From an uncultured Candidatus Binatia bacterium (GTDB taxonomy: Bacteria > Desulfobacterota > Binatia > UBA9968 > CAXXLF01): a stretch of DNA of 64,000 bases. Shown piece by piece: positions 38,501 through 44,500 of this stretch (its first letter is position 1; every line of letters begins with the position of its first letter). The position numbers are program-made. Location: positions 832,001 to 896,000 of the forward strand of contig OZ244621.1 of the NCBI GenBank assembly GCA_965218425.1. The letters run 5' to 3'.

Positions 38501-41500
38501 TCGCGTCTTGCCCACCGGTGATAAGTGAGAAAGCAGCTTCCCCCGTACTGGATTCCCCGGTCAATGAGGCGACGAAAATCCTTTAGTGTAAACCTCTGCC
38601 ATGACCATTGGCAGCAAGGGCTGCCCCTATGCTCAAACGATCGGCACCCGCTTGCTTCTGGATGATCCCCCACTGCGGTTCTCGCCCTTTCTGAATATTT
38701 AAAAGAGTGTTGACCAATTCCAGCCATTCCATACCAGCTTCCACTTCCACCTCACCCCTGTGGGGATCAAAGTTTAACACCCGGTTACCCCTCTCATATC
38801 CAACAGCACCGTGTCCGTCCCAAACTGCTGGCCACCCATGGCGTGCCTGCCCCCTGCGATGCTAATTCCTCGCCCCTCGTTGCGAGCAGTCTGGATTGCA
38901 GCCTGAATCGACTCGATGGAATCGGGTGTTAGAATACCAAGGACCCGTGTTTGATTTAACTTGGAATGCGGATCATTGACGGTGATGGCGGTTACTCGGG
39001 CCGGTTTCATGCCGTAACCAAAGGCCAAAGAGTCGCTGCCGTGCCGAGGGTTGGGAACAACTGCAAAAACTTTCTACGGGTTATCATAACGCCTCCGTTT
39101 AGATGCTCCTCGCTGTTACCCACCATCTGGCGGTCCAGAAAATCATGAACAGGGCAACTGCTTGGATGAGATGATAGAGCGCATTGTGGTTAAAGTACGT
39201 GGGATGGAGCGCGATGCCCCCCTGTTGTACCCCGGCAGCAACAAAGGTTAATAAGAATCCCACCAGACCAATCAGCACCTTGCGCTCACGGGCCTGAATG
39301 TAATTAAGGCTAAAGACAACGGTCAAAAAGACGACGGCCGGAAGGTAGTTCATTACCACGATGGAAAAGGAGTGTGTGATAGACAACACAACCAGACAGT
39401 ATGCGGCAAATTCTATTACTGCTAGAACACTAACCCAGCCGGCGACTCTGGGTGAGAGGCAAATCCTGGCACCAATAATCCAAGCGGCCAGTGCGGTAAC
39501 ACCGATGGCAACCAGAGTTAATGGCCACAGGATCCGATACCCGAGGGCATCCATGTCCGGGGAGAAACCATGAACAGTTCCCCCCGTGATTGCCGCCACG
39601 CTGATGGATCCAAAAAACACAGCAAACCAAATCCAGAGCGGATTCCTTTGGTCCCCGTCACGGAAAAGGAGATAGGCAAATAGAGCACTCTCTAAAGCCA
39701 CAAAATAGTCGGTCAGGGTTACATCAGGCTCTGTGATCATAGTTATAAAAGGCGCGATTTTGTATCGGCTGGGCTGCGATTGGAACAGTGCTAGACCGGA
39801 TTGTTCATCGCTCTCGAGAACGAGCCCTTAACCCACCGCTCGTTCAAGGGCCATCATTTTTACTTGTTTTAGATCGACCTTTCCTGATCCCAGCAAAGGA
39901 AAAAGGGCAGCATGAACGCCGCGGCAACCAGTGGCAGATACCCGCCGCCAGAACCGGAACTGACGGCCAGGTTAGCAGCCAGCGGTGAGACCACCATCTT
40001 GTGGACGTTATCGTTTAATGCACCCAGAAATTGGGTCCAGAGAAAGGGCTGGAGACCAGGCTGCTTGAGTGTATCTGCGTATTTCCCGCTGGGCATTGGC
40101 TATCCCTTATCATCTCATTTTTTCACGGCCAATTCCGAGTATAACCGGCAACTTGAATTAAGACCACCGTGAAACTATCCTTTTTACTTCTTCACTTGAA
40201 TTTTTCCCTTTCCTGAATTTTCATACAACTTTCAATTTTTTTCTAATGGCTTCTTTTAATCCAATTGAAAGGGCCCCTCCGGGCCATGAAGTCACTTCAA
40301 GTTGACATCACACCACGCTATCAGATAACCTCTGGCCACAATGGTTGGCAGGGCCAGCACATTTCCTGGTGCCACAACCGCTGCAGGAGCCCCGCGAGGC
40401 CATTTTAGACAACTGTTTCTAGAATGTTGAGATGATGTTGTTTACTAAGCCACCAGTGTTAACTGCTATCCCTTGAATCGAGTCCGCGACATATCTCATA
40501 AAAGGAGAGGAGCCACCATGGCCACAGCCAGCACTCAGCTCGACCCCGAAAAACAACCATCTCTTGTACGAATCGACGCCTACGCAGACTGGCGGCAACG
40601 AGAAGGCGCACCGCTCACAGGGGGCGTCTATATTGAGGATATGAATGCAGTGGAGGTGGGCCCATGGCCGCGTAAAGGAAATGGGGTCAAGGGAGCCCTA
40701 TGCTACCTGGATGGAGACGACGAGGCCGACGAGCACATCGTCGAGCTTCCTGCTGGGGGTAACACCGCCCCCTTGAGGCACCTCTACACGGAAGCCACTT
40801 ACGTCCTTTCGGGCCGCGGCTCCACCACGGTATGGCGCGACAACGGAGCGAAGCAGACCTTTGAATGGGGACCTGGAAGTTACTTCGTGCTACCCACCAA
40901 CGCGTCCCATCAGTTTTTCAACGCCAGCCTTTCACAGCCGGCGAGGTGGTTTTCCGTGACAGACCTTCCGGATCTATTGCGCCGCTGGGCCAGTGAGGAC
41001 TTTATCTTCAACAACTCCTACGACTTTCAGGACCGTTACACCGGTGAACCCGACTATTTCAGCGTGGACGCAAAACTGTACCGGGGCCGAGTCTGGGAGA
41101 CTAATTTCATTGCAGACATCAAGAAACTGCCCCTCTACGAATGGAAGAGCCGCGGGGGTGGCGGAACCAACGCATTTATGGTGATGGGCTCCGGCATGAT
41201 GGAGTCCCACGTCTCCCGCTTCGAATCCGGCCACTACAAGAAGGGCCATCGGCATGGCCCCGGGGCACACCTTTTCATCACTGAGGGTGAAGGCTATGTA
41301 CTCACCCAGCGTGAGGATGAGCCCCGCATCCGCTGCGACTGGAAAGTGGGAAGTCTCTACCTTTCAGGTGCCGGGGAAGGCATCTGGCTACACCAGCATT
41401 TTAACGTGGGCTCCACCCCCGCCACTTATTTGGTAATGAACCAGGGTCTGTCACGCAAGTATGCCGCAAATCGTTGGCAGGCGGGAGAATCAACCGTGCT

Positions 41501-44500
41501 GCGCGGTGGCGAGGTCAGCAGTAAAAAAGGGGGACGCCAAGTGGAGTACGAAGACGAGGATCTTGAGATCCATCGCATTTTCGAGGAGGAGCTGCGCAAG
41601 CGTGGGGTTACCTGCAGGATGAAGAACATGGTCCCATGGTGCACCGGTGAGCCGGGAGCGGAGACGGCCAAAGCATATTTTCTCGATGAGCATGGGGCGA
41701 ATCCAGCGAACCCATAGGCTGGCCTGGATACTCTCCAGTCCCTCGATATCTGAGATAACCGGTTCAATCGATCCCCGAGTGGGGCCAGAGACAAATCGAG
41801 ATCAATTAGAACAACGTGATGCACGACACCCTACACGATCATGATCACGGCGACGGGCTGCCCCAGCAGGAAGAAGAACACCCTCTCTGGAAACTAGACA
41901 CCATCACTCTCACCAGTGTCGGTATCGACATCGGCACCGCCACCTCGCAGATAATCTTCTCACGCCTGGTGCTGCGCAGGCTGGGTCGGGAGTTGTCCAG
42001 CCGTTTCGTGGTAGCGGAGCGTAAAACTCTTTACCTATCGCCCGTTCAATTCACGCCGTATACCGCCGGACGGGAGCGGATTGACGACAATGCCCTTAGG
42101 CTCCTGGTGGACACCGCATACCGGGACGCAGGGCTCAGCCCACAGGATGTGGACACCGGAGCGATCATTTTGACCGGCGAAGCGATTCGGCGCGACAACG
42201 CTCGCGCCATTGCAGACCTATTTGCGGCTCAGCAGGGGAATTTCGTCTGCGCCACCGCTGGACACAATTTCGAAGCGCTGCTGGCTGCCCATGGTTCCGG
42301 GGCGGTTGCCTACTCATCTGAGCAGCAATGCAGAGTACTCAATGTGGACATTGGCGGTGGCACCACCAAGCTGGCCATGGCTGAAAGGGGCCGCGTCCAG
42401 AGCACAGCCGCCTTTCACATAGGCAGCCGGTTACTGGCAACTGATGACGCTGGCGCCATTGCCATATTGGAGCCCGGGGGACATGCCCTGGCGCGTCAAA
42501 TCGGTTTTCAATGGCAGGTTGGGGACAGGGTCCCACTAGATCAGATTGACCGCTTAGCTGACCACATGGCCCAGGCGATCCTCACTCTCTCGCGGGAACA
42601 GAAACCCTCATCCGAACTCGAACAATTGTGGTTGACTTCACCCCTTCGGGGTTCAAAGAGCTGCGATGCAGTCATATTTTCTGGCGGAGTTGGCGAGTAC
42701 ATTTACGGAAAAGAGTCCAATTCCTTCGGTGACCTCGGCGCACACCTGGGTCAAGCCCTCCGACGTCACACCAGCAAGTCTCCGCATGCCTGGCCATTGG
42801 CCCCGGCACATGAGTGCATCCGAGCCACCGTCATGGGAGCCTCCCAATACACCGTGCAGGTAAGCGGAAATACCATCTACCGCTCCAACGAAAATCTCTT
42901 ACCCCGAAAAAACTTGCAGGTGCTACGTCCCCCGGTGGACCTGAGTCACGACATCGACGTGTCCACGGTGGCGCGTGGAATTCAGGGACATTTCCAGGCT
43001 TTTGATCTGCAGGAGGGGGTAACCGACGTCGTTCTGGTCTTCCAATGGGAGGGGGCACCTGCAGCCATCCGCATTGATGCTTTTTGTCGTGGCCTGCTGG
43101 AAGGCCTATCGGGAACATTAAAGAGTGGTGGACCCATCTATCTGGTTTTCGATCACGATCTGGCGGGGTTGGTAGGAAACATCCTAAAGGAGGAATTCGG
43201 ACTCATAAACGACATCCTCTCCATTGATGGAATCACCCTAAGGGACTTCGACTTCATCGATCTGGGCAAGATGCTAGAACCTTCGGGAACGGTGCCCGTT
43301 ACCATCAAGTCCCTGGTGTTTCAAATGTAACTTCAATCATGAACTGGAAAGTCCCCGGCCATTTATTGAACCCGAACATCAACCTGAGTATGCTAACGCC
43401 CTGAAATAAAGTATCTGAGCAGGAGGCGCACTATGATCCAAGCGAAAATGGAAGAAGTTCGGTTTCCTGGCGGTGGCGGAGAGATCCAAGCATGGATCGC
43501 TCGACCAACGGAGGCAGGCCGTTATCCAGCCATCGCATTGCTGCATGGCCGCAATGGGCCCAACGACAGCTTCCGTAACGTCGCCACCCGTTTCGCAGAG
43601 GAGGGCATCGTCGGCCTTGCTGTCAACTACATGACCCTCAAGGAGGAGCCTCCCTTAGAGGAAATGAACCGAAGCACCGAAGGCGCCCTCAGCTTTCTCA
43701 AATCCCAGACCCAGGTGGACACCGGGCGCATCGCCGTGGGCGGTTACTGTAAGGGCGGTGGGCTTACCTATCAAGCATTGGCCAAAATTTCCGGTTTCTC
43801 TGCGGGGGCAATTTGGCACGGGGGTTTATCGACAGACAACATGGAGGCGGCCTTGAAGGCCCAGGCATCTATGCTCATCATTCACGGGGCCTCGGACACG
43901 TCCGTGCCCATCGACAAAGTGTACGATCTGACCAAGCAGCTCAACCAGCAAGGCAAGCGATTCGAATTGAAGGTCTACCACGGTTGTGACCACGCATTTA
44001 CCTTGCCAGGTGGTGCTCGCTACGTTGCAGAGGCAGCGGACGATGCCTTTCGGGAGGCCGTCCTGTTTTTACGGCGAACCTACGCAATACCCGTGGGAAC
44101 GGTCCATCCGCTGGTGCCCACATCCTTAGCGGCTTAGCCGTAGGCGAAGTAGAAAGAGCGCTCGTCGCAGTCGCATCGGAGGTGAAATGCCACCACCATA
44201 CGCTTCACGCCACACGTTTGAGCATGACGTGGTTAATCCCCCATGAGAAGTGACTGACTTCAAAAAATACAGGACGTCGACGGTGGCGCCACCTCATTTA
44301 ACCCCTTTAAACCAATACCGCCGTGACGGGCACACGATCCTTAGGAACGTTTTTAACCCCGAAGAGATCGCTTCCCTACGGCAAGAGTGTGGGGACAAGG
44401 GGCAAGTGGCCTATATCGGCCCACGTGACCTTAACGAGCCTCCTGATTTCCGAGAAGCTGTGGATCACTTGCCTCAGTTTCTAGGTTCACGCATTGTTTT

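Follow-up and report, generated by a model that had tools for sequence, protein, structure and literature searches.

In an uncultured Candidatus Binatia bacterium, homologues of EutA have cupins rather than ethanolamine ammonia-lyase as their partners, a conclusion that is well supported. Homology, gene order, co-occurrence and the absence of EutB and EutC are matters of direct observation, and the functional tie of these EutA-like proteins to a family of bicupins is strong because the two have identical patterns of presence and absence in two distant bacterial families, show no link to EutB, are inherited together and are predicted to form a complex. We give about an even chance (roughly 50%) to the reading that the EutA-like protein is an ATP-driven helper dedicated to bicupin metalloenzymes, by which metal would be inserted or exchanged at the cupin site; here the contact is modelled, and we infer both the action on the metal and the identity of the metal. 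An earlier survey had proposed a metallochaperone or reactivase of the partner bicupin; the cupin partnership is well supported, whereas the mechanism is plausible.

Results

The locus

The window, that is, the whole 64,000-nucleotide stretch of DNA that was analysed, belongs to a genome that was assembled into a single 4.46-Mb contig, with a completeness of 97.3%. It carries a bicupin gene followed by a EutA-like gene (Table 1). When the + strand of the spacer between them was scanned, neither a terminator-like nor a promoter-like site was found. The dienelactone-hydrolase-family gene has the same direction as the pair, starts 102 nt 3' of the EutA-like gene and may be part of the pair's operon.

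Table 1. Features of the bicupin/EutA-like locus (window coordinates)
Feature	Position	Strand	Remarks
Bicupin, 399 aa	40518..41717	+	ORF; RBS-like AAAGGAGAGGAG before ATG 40518; stop at 41717
Spacer, 101 nt	41718..41818	+	Between bicupin and EutA-like gene
EutA-family ASKHA ATPase, 503 aa	41819..43330	+	ATG 41819; alternative start GTG 41816; PF06277
His/Asp-rich N-terminal extension of the EutA-like protein, residues 1-25	41819..41893	+	MHDTLHDHDHGDGLPQQEEEHPLWK
Dienelactone-hydrolase-family alpha/beta hydrolase, 234 aa	43433..44137	+	PF01738 DLH, 3.2e-31

The EutA-like protein

The EutA profile PF06277 matches the protein over positions 2-475 of 475 (1.4e-116), and identity to E. coli EutA (b2451) is 32% over 481 aa, in keeping with the coverage and the 31-35% identity given by the survey. 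The protein nevertheless scores under all four NCBIfam EutA equivalog cut-offs (332 bits versus 598). Among 30 aligned EutA-like sequences, G39, D177 and G179 are invariant, while D37 and G180-G181-T182, previously also called invariant, are kept in at least 90%; judged by sequence, the ATPase motif set is intact. The AF2 model (pLDDT 86.3; below 50 for residues 1-24) matches Ppx/GppA (Z 15.5) and pantothenate and sugar kinases (Z 11-13). No Cys is invariant or reaches 90% conservation in the 30-sequence alignment, which argues against an Fe-S electron-transfer activator.

The alignment with E. coli EutA begins at residue 26, after the His/Asp-rich tail. Similar tails are present in paralogs and in other phyla: at least three His precede the core in 62 of 108 full-length EutA-like representatives, at least six in 28 and none in 26, and 18 of the 108 start with MH[D/E]. 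The tail had been described as conserved, with invariant His residues. It is indeed found in the window protein and in both paralogs without a cupin neighbour, but the bicupin-paired paralogs at L014 and L015 are without it, and in neither the 8- nor the 30-sequence alignment is any N-terminal His invariant or conserved at the 90% level.

The bicupin family

Pfam Cupin_2 matches residues 74-147 of the bicupin (4.6e-12), and the AF2 model (pLDDT 87.4) consists of two barrels. The family comprises proteins of 370-400 aa with the motifs TFEW and WFHQHFN; the best 120 homologues share 61-95% identity with the window bicupin, the range noted before. About 59 full-length paralogs are encoded in the source genome, only 5 of which adjoin a EutA-like gene. 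In a set of 56 bicupins, a His cluster in the C-terminal barrel is conserved (H244 and H294 in 56/56, H292 in 55/56, H246 in 53/56, H251 in 45/56), which makes the bicupin a candidate client with a metal site; the earlier claim of invariance thus stands for H244 and H294 and falls just short for H246 and H292. F115, E116, W117 and N135 of the N-terminal cupin are invariant (56/56).

In VIA-align comparisons, gentisate 1,2-dioxygenase (Z 19.6) and salicylate 1,2-dioxygenase (Z 19.4) occupied the top rows, although seed storage proteins and oxalate decarboxylase came within about 1 Z of them, which amounts to a tie. NCBIfam gave no gentisate dioxygenase match, the best hit being 5-aminosalicylate dioxygenase with 24.7 bits against a cut-off of 650, and neither Pfam nor fold comparison revealed anything akin to a known corrinoid-binding domain. 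Genes neighbouring pair loci encode Rieske/LigXa, LigB, Amidohydro_2, UbiD and RraA-like aldolase proteins, a setting of aromatic catabolism. The bicupins probably take part in breaking down aromatic compounds, as oxygenases or enzymes related to them.

Paralogs in the source genome

The genome has nine EutA-family genes, as the survey had counted. At five of the nine loci (the window, L012, L014, L015 and L018) a family bicupin gene directly precedes the EutA-like gene in the same direction, for which we estimate a chance probability of about 1e-7, taking some 59 bicupins and roughly 4000 genes. The EutA paralog of L018, earlier thought to lack about 105 N-terminal residues and to lie one gene away from its bicupin, is instead frameshifted near 8150-8165(-), and its His-rich N-terminus (MGHDHHHPDE...) is encoded in a separate upstream piece; as the intervening ORF is this piece, the bicupin is directly adjacent. 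Six loci do combine a bicupin with a EutA-like gene, but the 340-aa Cupin_2 bicupin upstream at L016 is of another type, leaving five family pairs. At L019 the two supposed small cupins upstream are a 177-aa Cupin_2 protein and a 161-aa protein without a Pfam match. No cupin gene was found among the neighbours at L013 and L017, again as reported. At L014 the gene directly upstream of the pair encodes a LonC-type protease, and at L019 a CDC48-type AAA ATPase is encoded directly downstream.

Profile searches of the source genome returned no EutB, EutC or MM_CoA_mutase, bearing out these three of the absences listed by the survey. Dehydratase_LU gave no match either, but this control was silent in every genome, so that its negative carries no weight. 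Three proteins contain a B12-binding domain.

Distribution and co-inheritance

Among 151 Streptomycetaceae genomes, 8 have a EutA-like gene, the same 8 have the bicupin, adjacent in 8/8, and 143 have neither. Among 101 Xanthobacteraceae genomes, the bicupin occurs in 23 and the EutA-like gene in the same 23, with no genome carrying just one, although such presence tables exaggerate independence because genomes of one bacterial family are kin. The Xanthobacteraceae set holds 55 near-full-length EutA-like genes, 34 of which are no more than 600 nt from a bicupin, with another 8 no more than 4 kb away. Controls from the same 101 genomes behaved differently: 40 genomes have EutB, of which just 7 belong to the 23 and the other 33 lack a EutA match; 55 genomes have the Rieske control LigXa_C, 32 of them without the pair. 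In the order of the source genome, EutA occurs in 121/121 genomes and EutB in 0/121, and EutB was also absent from 10 further pair-carrying genomes (0/10). Distance matrices of EutA-like proteins and bicupins from 23 pairs correlate (Mantel r 0.756; 0 of 2000 permutations as high), which supports inheritance of the pair together. Since the EutA-like gene is found only in bicupin-bearing genomes of the families sampled, and often adjacent, it most likely serves bicupins.

The numbers of the two partners are unequal. The ratio of bicupins to EutA-like genes is 59:9 in the source genome, and three Xanthobacteraceae genomes have ratios no lower than 18:3, 19:2 and 17:3, their bicupin counts being minima. 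Of 80 sampled bicupin loci, 55 have no EutA-like gene in the available DNA, some contigs being short; five genomes with such a locus each have 1-6 EutA-like genes elsewhere. Conversely, none of the best 30 EutA matches in the order has a family bicupin within 1.5 kb.

Predicted complex

Modelling of the EutA-like protein with the bicupin gave the verdict "supports binding", with a score of 0.64 compared with 0.01 for the best of three controls. The score mark recovers 116 of 157 solved complexes and lets through 2 of 215 mismatched pairs, counts that hold only roughly because our own alignments were used. Runs agreed on at least 48% of the contacts, and partner pLDDT was at least 73. The predicted interface lies on the N-terminal bicupin barrel (residues 79-82, 100-104, 112-116 and 132-139), away from the conserved His cluster, and on the C-terminal domain of the EutA-like protein, within the end-to-end EutA homology. 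Physical contact is thus predicted by the model.

Metal-handling genes

In Alicyclobacillus herbarius, a HoxN/NixA-type Ni/Co permease gene is located directly 3' of the pair (TIGR00802, 349 versus a cut-off of 333). ABC importers adjoining a EutA-like gene at L017 of the source genome and at L063 of a Syntrophales genome score best with nickel families; one subunit is barely over its cut-off (351.1 versus 350), and most Nik-like matches fall under theirs. NicO occurs near the bicupin at 1 of 80 loci and Nik/Opp-like permeases at 4 of 80, two of these without a EutA-like gene; no NicO homologue was found in the source genome.

Discussion

The EutA-like protein perhaps loads or repairs the metal site of the bicupin, which is a plausible mechanism. 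We propose that: the protein would dock on the bicupin through its own C-terminal domain; its ATP/ADP cycle would open the client, in the manner of EutA on a B12 enzyme; metal would be inserted into the opened, His-lined cupin site, or a wrong or oxidised metal swapped; the flexible His/Asp-rich tail might carry the incoming ion, possibly Ni or Co; and solitary copies would act in trans on the many unlinked paralogs, other copies being encoded in cis beside one client. We favour a metal loader or repairer because few helpers face many clients, the disordered tail is His-rich and often begins with MH[D/E] as in HypA, conserved Cys are lacking and Ni/Co importers occasionally lie nearby. Against this reading, or neutral to it, are the modelled interface on the N-terminal barrel rather than at the conserved His site, the absence of the tail in two paired paralogs and 26 of 108 representatives, the rarity of Ni/Co uptake genes near the pair, the 55 of 80 sampled bicupin loci with no EutA-like gene in the available DNA, and the P-loop build of known NTP-driven metallochaperones.

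It is unlikely that the two proteins form a two-component enzyme in which the ATPase is a catalytic subunit, coupling ATP hydrolysis to the bicupin reaction, e.g., by substrate activation or phosphorylation as in other ASKHA enzymes. Tight co-directional pairing, common presence and absence and the complex model would all fit such an enzyme, and not only chaperone-like proteins but also kinases and phosphatases are among the matches to the ASKHA fold. However, the gene ratios misfit a fixed-ratio subunit, most sampled bicupin loci have no EutA-like gene nearby, EutA homology runs end to end, including the domain of the modelled interface, and the His-rich tail is left without explanation. A phosphatase-family gene upstream of the pair in actinomycetes, which also counts against it, proved by NCBI cut-off to be an ordinary phosphoglycerate mutase. 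A helper rather than a subunit is indicated because bicupins far outnumber EutA-like proteins and the best 30 matches in the order stand alone.

Such a helper could act on the protein alone, folding, assembling or disassembling bicupin oligomers or passing inactivated enzyme to proteases with the metal untouched. The Hsp70-type fold, the LonC and CDC48 neighbours and the position of the modelled interface on a barrel surface with four invariant residues are consistent with this, yet we consider it quite improbable, as protease-type neighbours occur at one locus each, and the HypA-like N-terminus and the Ni/Co importer neighbours would be unexplained. Membership of PF06277, the three B12-binding-domain proteins and a putative class II ribonucleotide reductase, according to an earlier reading of the genome, would suit a cobalamin reactivase serving that reductase or another unrecognised B12 enzyme, or a bicupin that itself holds a corrinoid. 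This is very doubtful: EutB, EutC and methylmalonyl-CoA mutase are absent, in Xanthobacteraceae the EutA-like gene coincides with the bicupin genome for genome but does not track EutB, the equivalog cut-offs are not reached, and the bicupin resembles no known corrinoid-binding domain. Presence in just 8 of 151 Streptomycetaceae is also too rare for the helper of a common housekeeping enzyme.

Comparison with known systems

Literature searches found no paper on the EutA-like/bicupin pair. Gentisate dioxygenase (PDB 3bu7; Z 19.6, rmsd 5.1, 278 residues aligned, 15% identity) and salicylate 1,2-dioxygenase (PDB 2phd; Z 19.4) share the bicupin architecture, compared over residues 1-347, but differ in that the conserved His cluster of the window bicupin is in the C-terminal barrel; we know of no reported ATPase requirement for these dioxygenases. 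HypA/HypB, UreE/UreG and CooC/CooJ deliver metal in an NTP-dependent way and have His-rich stretches, as in the EutA-like tail with its occasional MH[D/E] start. They are, however, P-loop or zinc-ribbon proteins, unrelated in fold to an ASKHA ATPase, and the EutA-like client is a cupin, for which a nickel role is conjectural. The NTP-driven metallochaperones known so far are P-loop proteins. HypA binds Ni via its first three residues, MHE (PMC7055735), and a term search of a 2022 review of NTP-dependent metallochaperones returned no mention of EutA, ASKHA or cupins (PMC9164220). For Fe-S cluster transfer, the same review describes HscA (Hsp70) as an ASKHA ATPase driving cofactor hand-over to clients (PMC9164220). 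HscA, together with a J-protein, acts on a scaffold protein, and it has no sequence kinship to the EutA-like protein beyond the fold.

The reactivase of diol/glycerol dehydratase is an ASKHA-fold ATPase that frees damaged cofactor from its enzyme. DdrAB (PDB 2d0o) matches the EutA-like model (Z 10.8, rmsd 4.1, 244 residues aligned), but ranks 40th among its fold matches, and it is a two-subunit protein whose client depends on B12. EutA is the reactivase of adenosylcobalamin-dependent ethanolamine ammonia-lyase; cycled by ATP, it opens its client and exchanges the content of the active site. The E. coli protein lacks the 25-residue His/Asp-rich extension, and the EutA-like protein tracks the bicupin family instead, neither EutB nor EutC occurring in the source genome, across its order or among the 10 further carriers. 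The two are homologous from end to end and keep the ASKHA phosphate-binding motifs, and by analogy the EutA-like protein probably works in EutA's way, as an ATP-cycled opener of its client.

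Results

The gene pair and its surroundings

The positions of the two genes studied here and of the other features discussed are collected in the table. In the bicupin, Pfam's Cupin_2 profile matches residues 74-147, the N-terminal barrel (4.6e-12), and the AlphaFold2 model (56 homologues in the input, pLDDT 87.4) contains two cupin barrels, with bicupin structures matching it at Z 17-19.6. The EutA-like protein is matched over its full length by PF06277 (profile positions 2-475 of 475, 390.6 bits, 1.4e-116) and is 32% identical to E. coli EutA over 481 residues. It falls short of all four equivalog cut-offs that NCBIfam sets for EutA; the highest score, with NF007992, is 332.1 bits where 598 are required, and an actinomycete member likewise stays below (305 against 598).

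Most of the remaining genes in the window are housekeeping genes. The region of the DUF4143 gene has a G+C content of 64.5%, compared with 51-58% around it; this gene and the rve-family integrase gene may be remnants of mobile elements.

Features in the window and at other EutA-paralog loci of the same genome (L numbers; C1, its contig)
Feature	Locus	Position	Strand	Remarks
Bicupin, 399 aa	window	40518-41717	+	ATG at 40518, AAAGGAGAGGAG just before it
Spacer between bicupin and EutA-like gene, 101 nt	window			no terminator-like site on the + strand
EutA-like protein, 503 aa	window	41819-43330	+	Pfam EutA PF06277
Dienelactone-hydrolase-family gene (Pfam)	window	43433-44137		downstream of the EutA-like gene
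DUF4143 protein	window	45917-46714	-	AAA_14 domain reduced to its tail
rve-family integrase	window	8238-9317	+	further upstream
Stand-alone EutA-like paralog	L013	6788-8416	-	His-rich C-terminal tail GRGHSHGHHQHSH and acidic/His N-terminus
LonC-type protease	L014	8960-11419	-	directly upstream of a bicupin/EutA-like pair
Split EutA-like paralog	L018	8047-8415 and 6881-8278	-	C1 1738881-1740415; called as two genes
CDC48-type double-AAA ATPase	L019	8354-10513	+	directly downstream of the EutA-like gene

EutA-like proteins occur without ethanolamine ammonia-lyase

The source genome, 97.3% complete, forms one contig of 4.46 Mb. We recovered all nine EutA-family genes reported by the survey, and both ethanolamine ammonia-lyase subunits were absent as it had stated (EutB 0, EutC 0). 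Its further claim that no other adenosylcobalamin mutase or eliminase is encoded held for the methylmalonyl-CoA-mutase-type domain (0), but three proteins with a B12-binding domain are present; the search for diol dehydratase (Dehydratase_LU) was uninformative for this genome, as its control stayed silent in every genome. EutA homologues were found in all 121 sampled genomes of the order (including four flagged as unpublished, G069, G074, G092 and G102), typically three to five in each, while EutB was found in 0 of the 121 and in 0 of 10 further carrier genomes. Ethanolamine is excluded as the concern of this EutA clade, and the databases' name for these proteins, ethanolamine ammonia-lyase reactivase, is wrong in these genomes. 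One homologue of the bicupin (P0091) is itself named "ethanolamine ammonia lyase-activating protein" by its source, a label that seems to have spread from the adjoining EutA-like gene.

Gene order and paralogs

A bicupin of the window protein's family (370-400 aa) lies directly upstream of, and co-directional with, the EutA-like gene at five loci (the window, L012, L014, L015 and L018), and the two paralogs said to have no cupin neighbor (L013 and L017) indeed have none. At L016 the upstream gene encodes a different bicupin (340 aa, Cupin_2). At L019, where two small cupin genes had been reported, one is a 177-aa Cupin_2 protein, but the other, of 161 aa, has no Pfam match. The paralog described as lacking its N-terminus proved not to be truncated: a single frameshift near position 8150-8165 of L018 splits the gene, and what had been taken for a separate gene between it and the bicupin is its own His-rich N-terminal piece (MGHDHHHPDE...). 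This copy is either a pseudogene or the product of an assembly error.

A subfamily profile search (E below 1e-86) revealed about 59 full-length paralogs of the family bicupin in the genome, along with two copies that are split and about two dozen bicupins of other kinds. Of the 59, only 5 have an EutA-like neighbor, although, seen from the other side, 5 of the 9 EutA-like genes lie beside a family bicupin, for which we estimate a chance probability of about 1e-7. The few-to-many ratio, together with the stand-alone copies, suggests that the EutA-like proteins act in trans. The possibility that the EutA-linked bicupins form one clade was rejected, as a FastTree phylogeny of 151 bicupins requires at least 8-9 changes of linkage (shuffled mean, 28.7); the five linked bicupins of this genome are spread over four clades. 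Among the 30 best-scoring EutA matches in the order (one locus being from G074), a family bicupin was found within 1.5 kb at none, and the stand-alone paralog at L013 resembles these proteins. The LonC-type protease and CDC48-type ATPase genes that adjoin two of the loci may be a sign that damaged enzyme is turned over.

The two families are inherited together

A pattern scan with one genome per species yielded 80 bicupin loci, from Binatia, Chloroflexota, MAGs labeled Alpha- or Deltaproteobacteria, Actinomycetota, Bacillota, Rokubacteria and others. The EutA-like gene is present at 25 of them, nearly always directly downstream; the remaining 55 include some short contigs. In five genomes without the gene at the sampled locus, one to six copies were found elsewhere; EutB was absent from all five and also from five more carrier genomes.

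Joint presence and absence within single bacterial families gave the sharpest test. In a sample of 151 Streptomycetaceae, the EutA-like gene and the bicupin gene each occur in 8 genomes, the same 8, as single copies that are always adjacent (8/8), and neither occurs in the other 143. In a sample of 101 Xanthobacteraceae, both occur in the same 23 genomes, and no genome has one family alone; a bicupin gene lies within 600 nt of 34 of the 55 near-full-length EutA-like genes there, and within 4 kb of 8 more. Because genomes of one family are kin, these tables are not independent trials; the same exception-free pattern is, nevertheless, seen in two distant lineages. The controls behaved differently, with EutB in 40 of the Xanthobacteraceae, 7 of them with an EutA-like gene (16 genomes had EutA-like only and 33 EutB only), and with the Rieske C-terminal domain LigXa_C in 55, namely all 23 pair genomes and 32 others. 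As a separate observation, 33 of the 40 EutB genomes lack any EutA-family match down to E 1e-30, so that ethanolamine ammonia-lyase in this sample is commonly without an EutA-type reactivase.

Pairwise distances in the two families are correlated (Mantel r 0.756, 23 pairs, 0 of 2000 permutations as high). In a Dehalococcoidia MAG (Chloroflexota, L057), the bicupin is 79% and the EutA-like protein 75% identical to those in the window, suggesting a recent joint transfer of both genes. That this EutA clade is functionally tied to the bicupin family is strongly supported.

Conserved sites and the predicted complex

The conserved cluster of the bicupin, HxH...H...HxH, lies in the C-terminal barrel and includes H251 (45/56), with Y240 and E347 in addition. 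Four of its histidines had been called invariant, and two are (H244 and H294, 56/56), but H246 (53/56) and H292 (55/56) are not quite so. The candidate ligands of the N-terminal barrel are variable at H88 (33/56) and H131 (35/56), with E92 kept in 55/56.

A complex of the two proteins is predicted with a score of 0.64, in the class "supports binding", compared with 0.01 for the best of three controls; of 157 solved complexes, 116 reached this mark, as did 2 of 215 mismatched pairs, rates that are rough with our own alignments (56 and 30 rows) as input. The runs share at least 48% of contacts, with a partner pLDDT of at least 73. The modeled interface would join the C-terminal domain of the ATPase (351-352, 412-420, 446-459 and 488) to the N-terminal barrel of the bicupin (79-82, 100-104, 112-116 and 132-139), a region that takes in the invariant F115 and E116 and adjoins the invariant W117 and N135.

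The EutA-like protein carries the phosphate-binding motifs of ASKHA (actin/Hsp70-fold) ATPases, DxGxT and DxGGGT. Among 30 sequences, G39, D177 and G179 are invariant as claimed, but D37 and G180-G181-T182 only reach 90% or more. Its model matches Ppx/GppA, PilM, FtsA and MreB (Z 12-15.5), all generic ASKHA matches with no specific relative among them, and sequence searches against solved structures returned nothing useful for either protein. An electron-transferring activator of the "archerase" type, brought up by weak BcrAD_BadFG matches and an HgdC-type match (Z 13.3), was rejected, since no cysteine appears among the invariant or 90% conserved positions of the 30 sequences.

Residues 1-24 are predicted to be disordered and are missing from E. 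coli EutA. The His/Asp-rich N-terminus to which they belong, described as conserved, is widespread but not universal. Of the 150 best cluster representatives, 108 with a methionine start and a recognizable core motif were scored (42 were excluded, 25 for want of the motif and the rest on the start or length test); at least three His precede the core in 62, at least six in 28 and none in 26, and actinomycete members have 8-13 His within 55 N-terminal residues. Within the source genome, the tail does not track cupin pairing, being absent at the paired L014 and L015 and present at the unpaired L013 and L017. Like the window protein, 18 of the 108 start with MH[D/E]; His at position 2 occurs in 0 of 118 bicupin homologues, a crude background for this start. 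In HypA, the nickel site consists of the first three residues, MHE, according to a review (PMC7055735).

Neighboring genes

Near the pairs are genes for Rieske/LigXa oxygenases, LigB, Amidohydro_2, UbiD, RraA-like and class II aldolases, DHDPS-family enzymes, solute-binding proteins and Mo-hydroxylase subunits, surroundings that are consistent with the breakdown of substituted aromatics. By single-sequence search, the source genome has about 84 Rieske/LigXa-type, 72 UbiD-type, 54-108 Amidohydro_2-type and 20 LigB-type genes, besides about 90 genes for solute-binding proteins and 37 for large subunits of Mo-hydroxylases. The large Rieske, UbiD, Amidohydro_2 and LigB counts indicate an organism heavily invested in aromatic catabolism. 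Three kinds of gene are enriched over expectation near its bicupins: LigB-type (about 3.3-fold), those for solute-binding proteins (about 2.7-fold) and Rieske genes (about 2-fold).

As for metal uptake, a HoxN/NixA-type Ni/Co permease, above the NCBI cut-off, directly follows the EutA-like gene in Alicyclobacillus herbarius, and ABC importers that score highest against nickel or nickel/cobalt families adjoin it at L017 and in a Syntrophales MAG, with one permease barely passing its cut-off (351.1 against 350) and the others below. Across the 80 bicupin loci, NicO occurs at one and Nik/Opp-like permeases at four, two of which have no EutA-like gene; an enrichment for nickel is too sparse here to settle the metal. 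In four actinomycete loci from different genera (L091, L094, L099 and L115), the gene immediately before the pair belongs to the phosphatase family His_Phos_1, a conserved placement. A link to phosphatase activity was discarded, as the product is a phosphoglycerate mutase by the NCBI equivalog cut-off (394.7 against 366), which is exceeded at L094 and L099; we read it as a housekeeping neighbor.

Discussion

EutA is a factor that swaps a damaged cofactor. At about even odds (0.5), we take the EutA-like protein to be an ATP-cycled helper that would open the bicupin so that metal is loaded or exchanged, with the stand-alone copies acting in trans on other bicupins. This is favored by the small number of helpers for many bicupins, by the copies that stand alone, by the metal-binding-type tail, by the lack of conserved cysteines and by the end-to-end homology to EutA. 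Two points count against it: the modeled interface is away from the conserved His site, and not every member has the tail. Alternatively, bicupin and EutA-like protein might be the two subunits of one ATP-coupled enzyme; the predicted complex and the strict one-to-one adjacency in Streptomycetaceae would suit this, but the source genome has about 59 bicupins to nine EutA-like genes, and we consider it unlikely.

The same interface would be compatible with a folding or quality-control chaperone that is independent of metal, a rather improbable role in view of the metal-binding-type tails found in many members. Service to a hidden cobalamin client, for which the three B12-binding-domain proteins might be candidates, is very improbable given the joint presence and absence of the two families. 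Going beyond the metal-loading helper for the bicupin, it is possible, at somewhat less than even odds, that EutA-like proteins constitute a new ASKHA-fold class of metallochaperones or reactivases that use ATP to insert or exchange a metal, possibly Ni or Co held by the HypA-like tail, in a large bicupin family of aromatic catabolism, with few helpers for dozens of paralogous clients in one cell. EutA would on this view be a specialized branch within a wider family of "active-site exchange" ATPases.

If a helper of this kind does load or repair the metal site of a cupin, no factor with an ASKHA fold would have done so before, and the reactivase principle would be widened from B12 enzymes to simple metal centers. 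It would also provide a way into an uncharacterized bicupin family with very many members in soil and sediment bacteria (about 59 here, 2264 database homologues). A single pair is present in cultured members of Streptomyces, Planotetraspora, Nonomuraea and Alicyclobacillus, which opens the question to direct testing; non-pathogenic examples are Streptomyces mexicanus JCM 12681, Planotetraspora mira NBRC 15435 and Alicyclobacillus herbarius DSM 13609. In the open-access literature, we found no paper on the pair and no "ammonia lyase-activating protein", and some mentions of "EutA" concern ectoine EutA; a term search of a 2022 review of NTPase metallochaperones (PMC9164220) found none of EutA, ASKHA, reactivase and cupin.

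Among known enzymes, gentisate and salicylate 1,2-dioxygenases head the fold matches of the bicupin (Z 19.6 and 19.4), but storage proteins (vicilins) and oxalate decarboxylase are tied with them within about 1 Z, and Foldseek gives only generic bicupins, with MncA and oxalate decarboxylase first (TM about 0.45). The gentisate 1,2-dioxygenase model TIGR02272 does not match the window bicupin, and the nearest curated dioxygenase, 5-aminosalicylate 1,2-dioxygenase, scores 24.7 bits against a cut-off of 650, with none passing. Metallochaperones of the UreG, HypB, CobW and CooC type have a P-loop NTPase fold, whereas that of the EutA-like protein is ASKHA; its N-terminal stretch has at least three His in 62 of 108 representatives, and metal-uptake genes are sparse among its neighbors.
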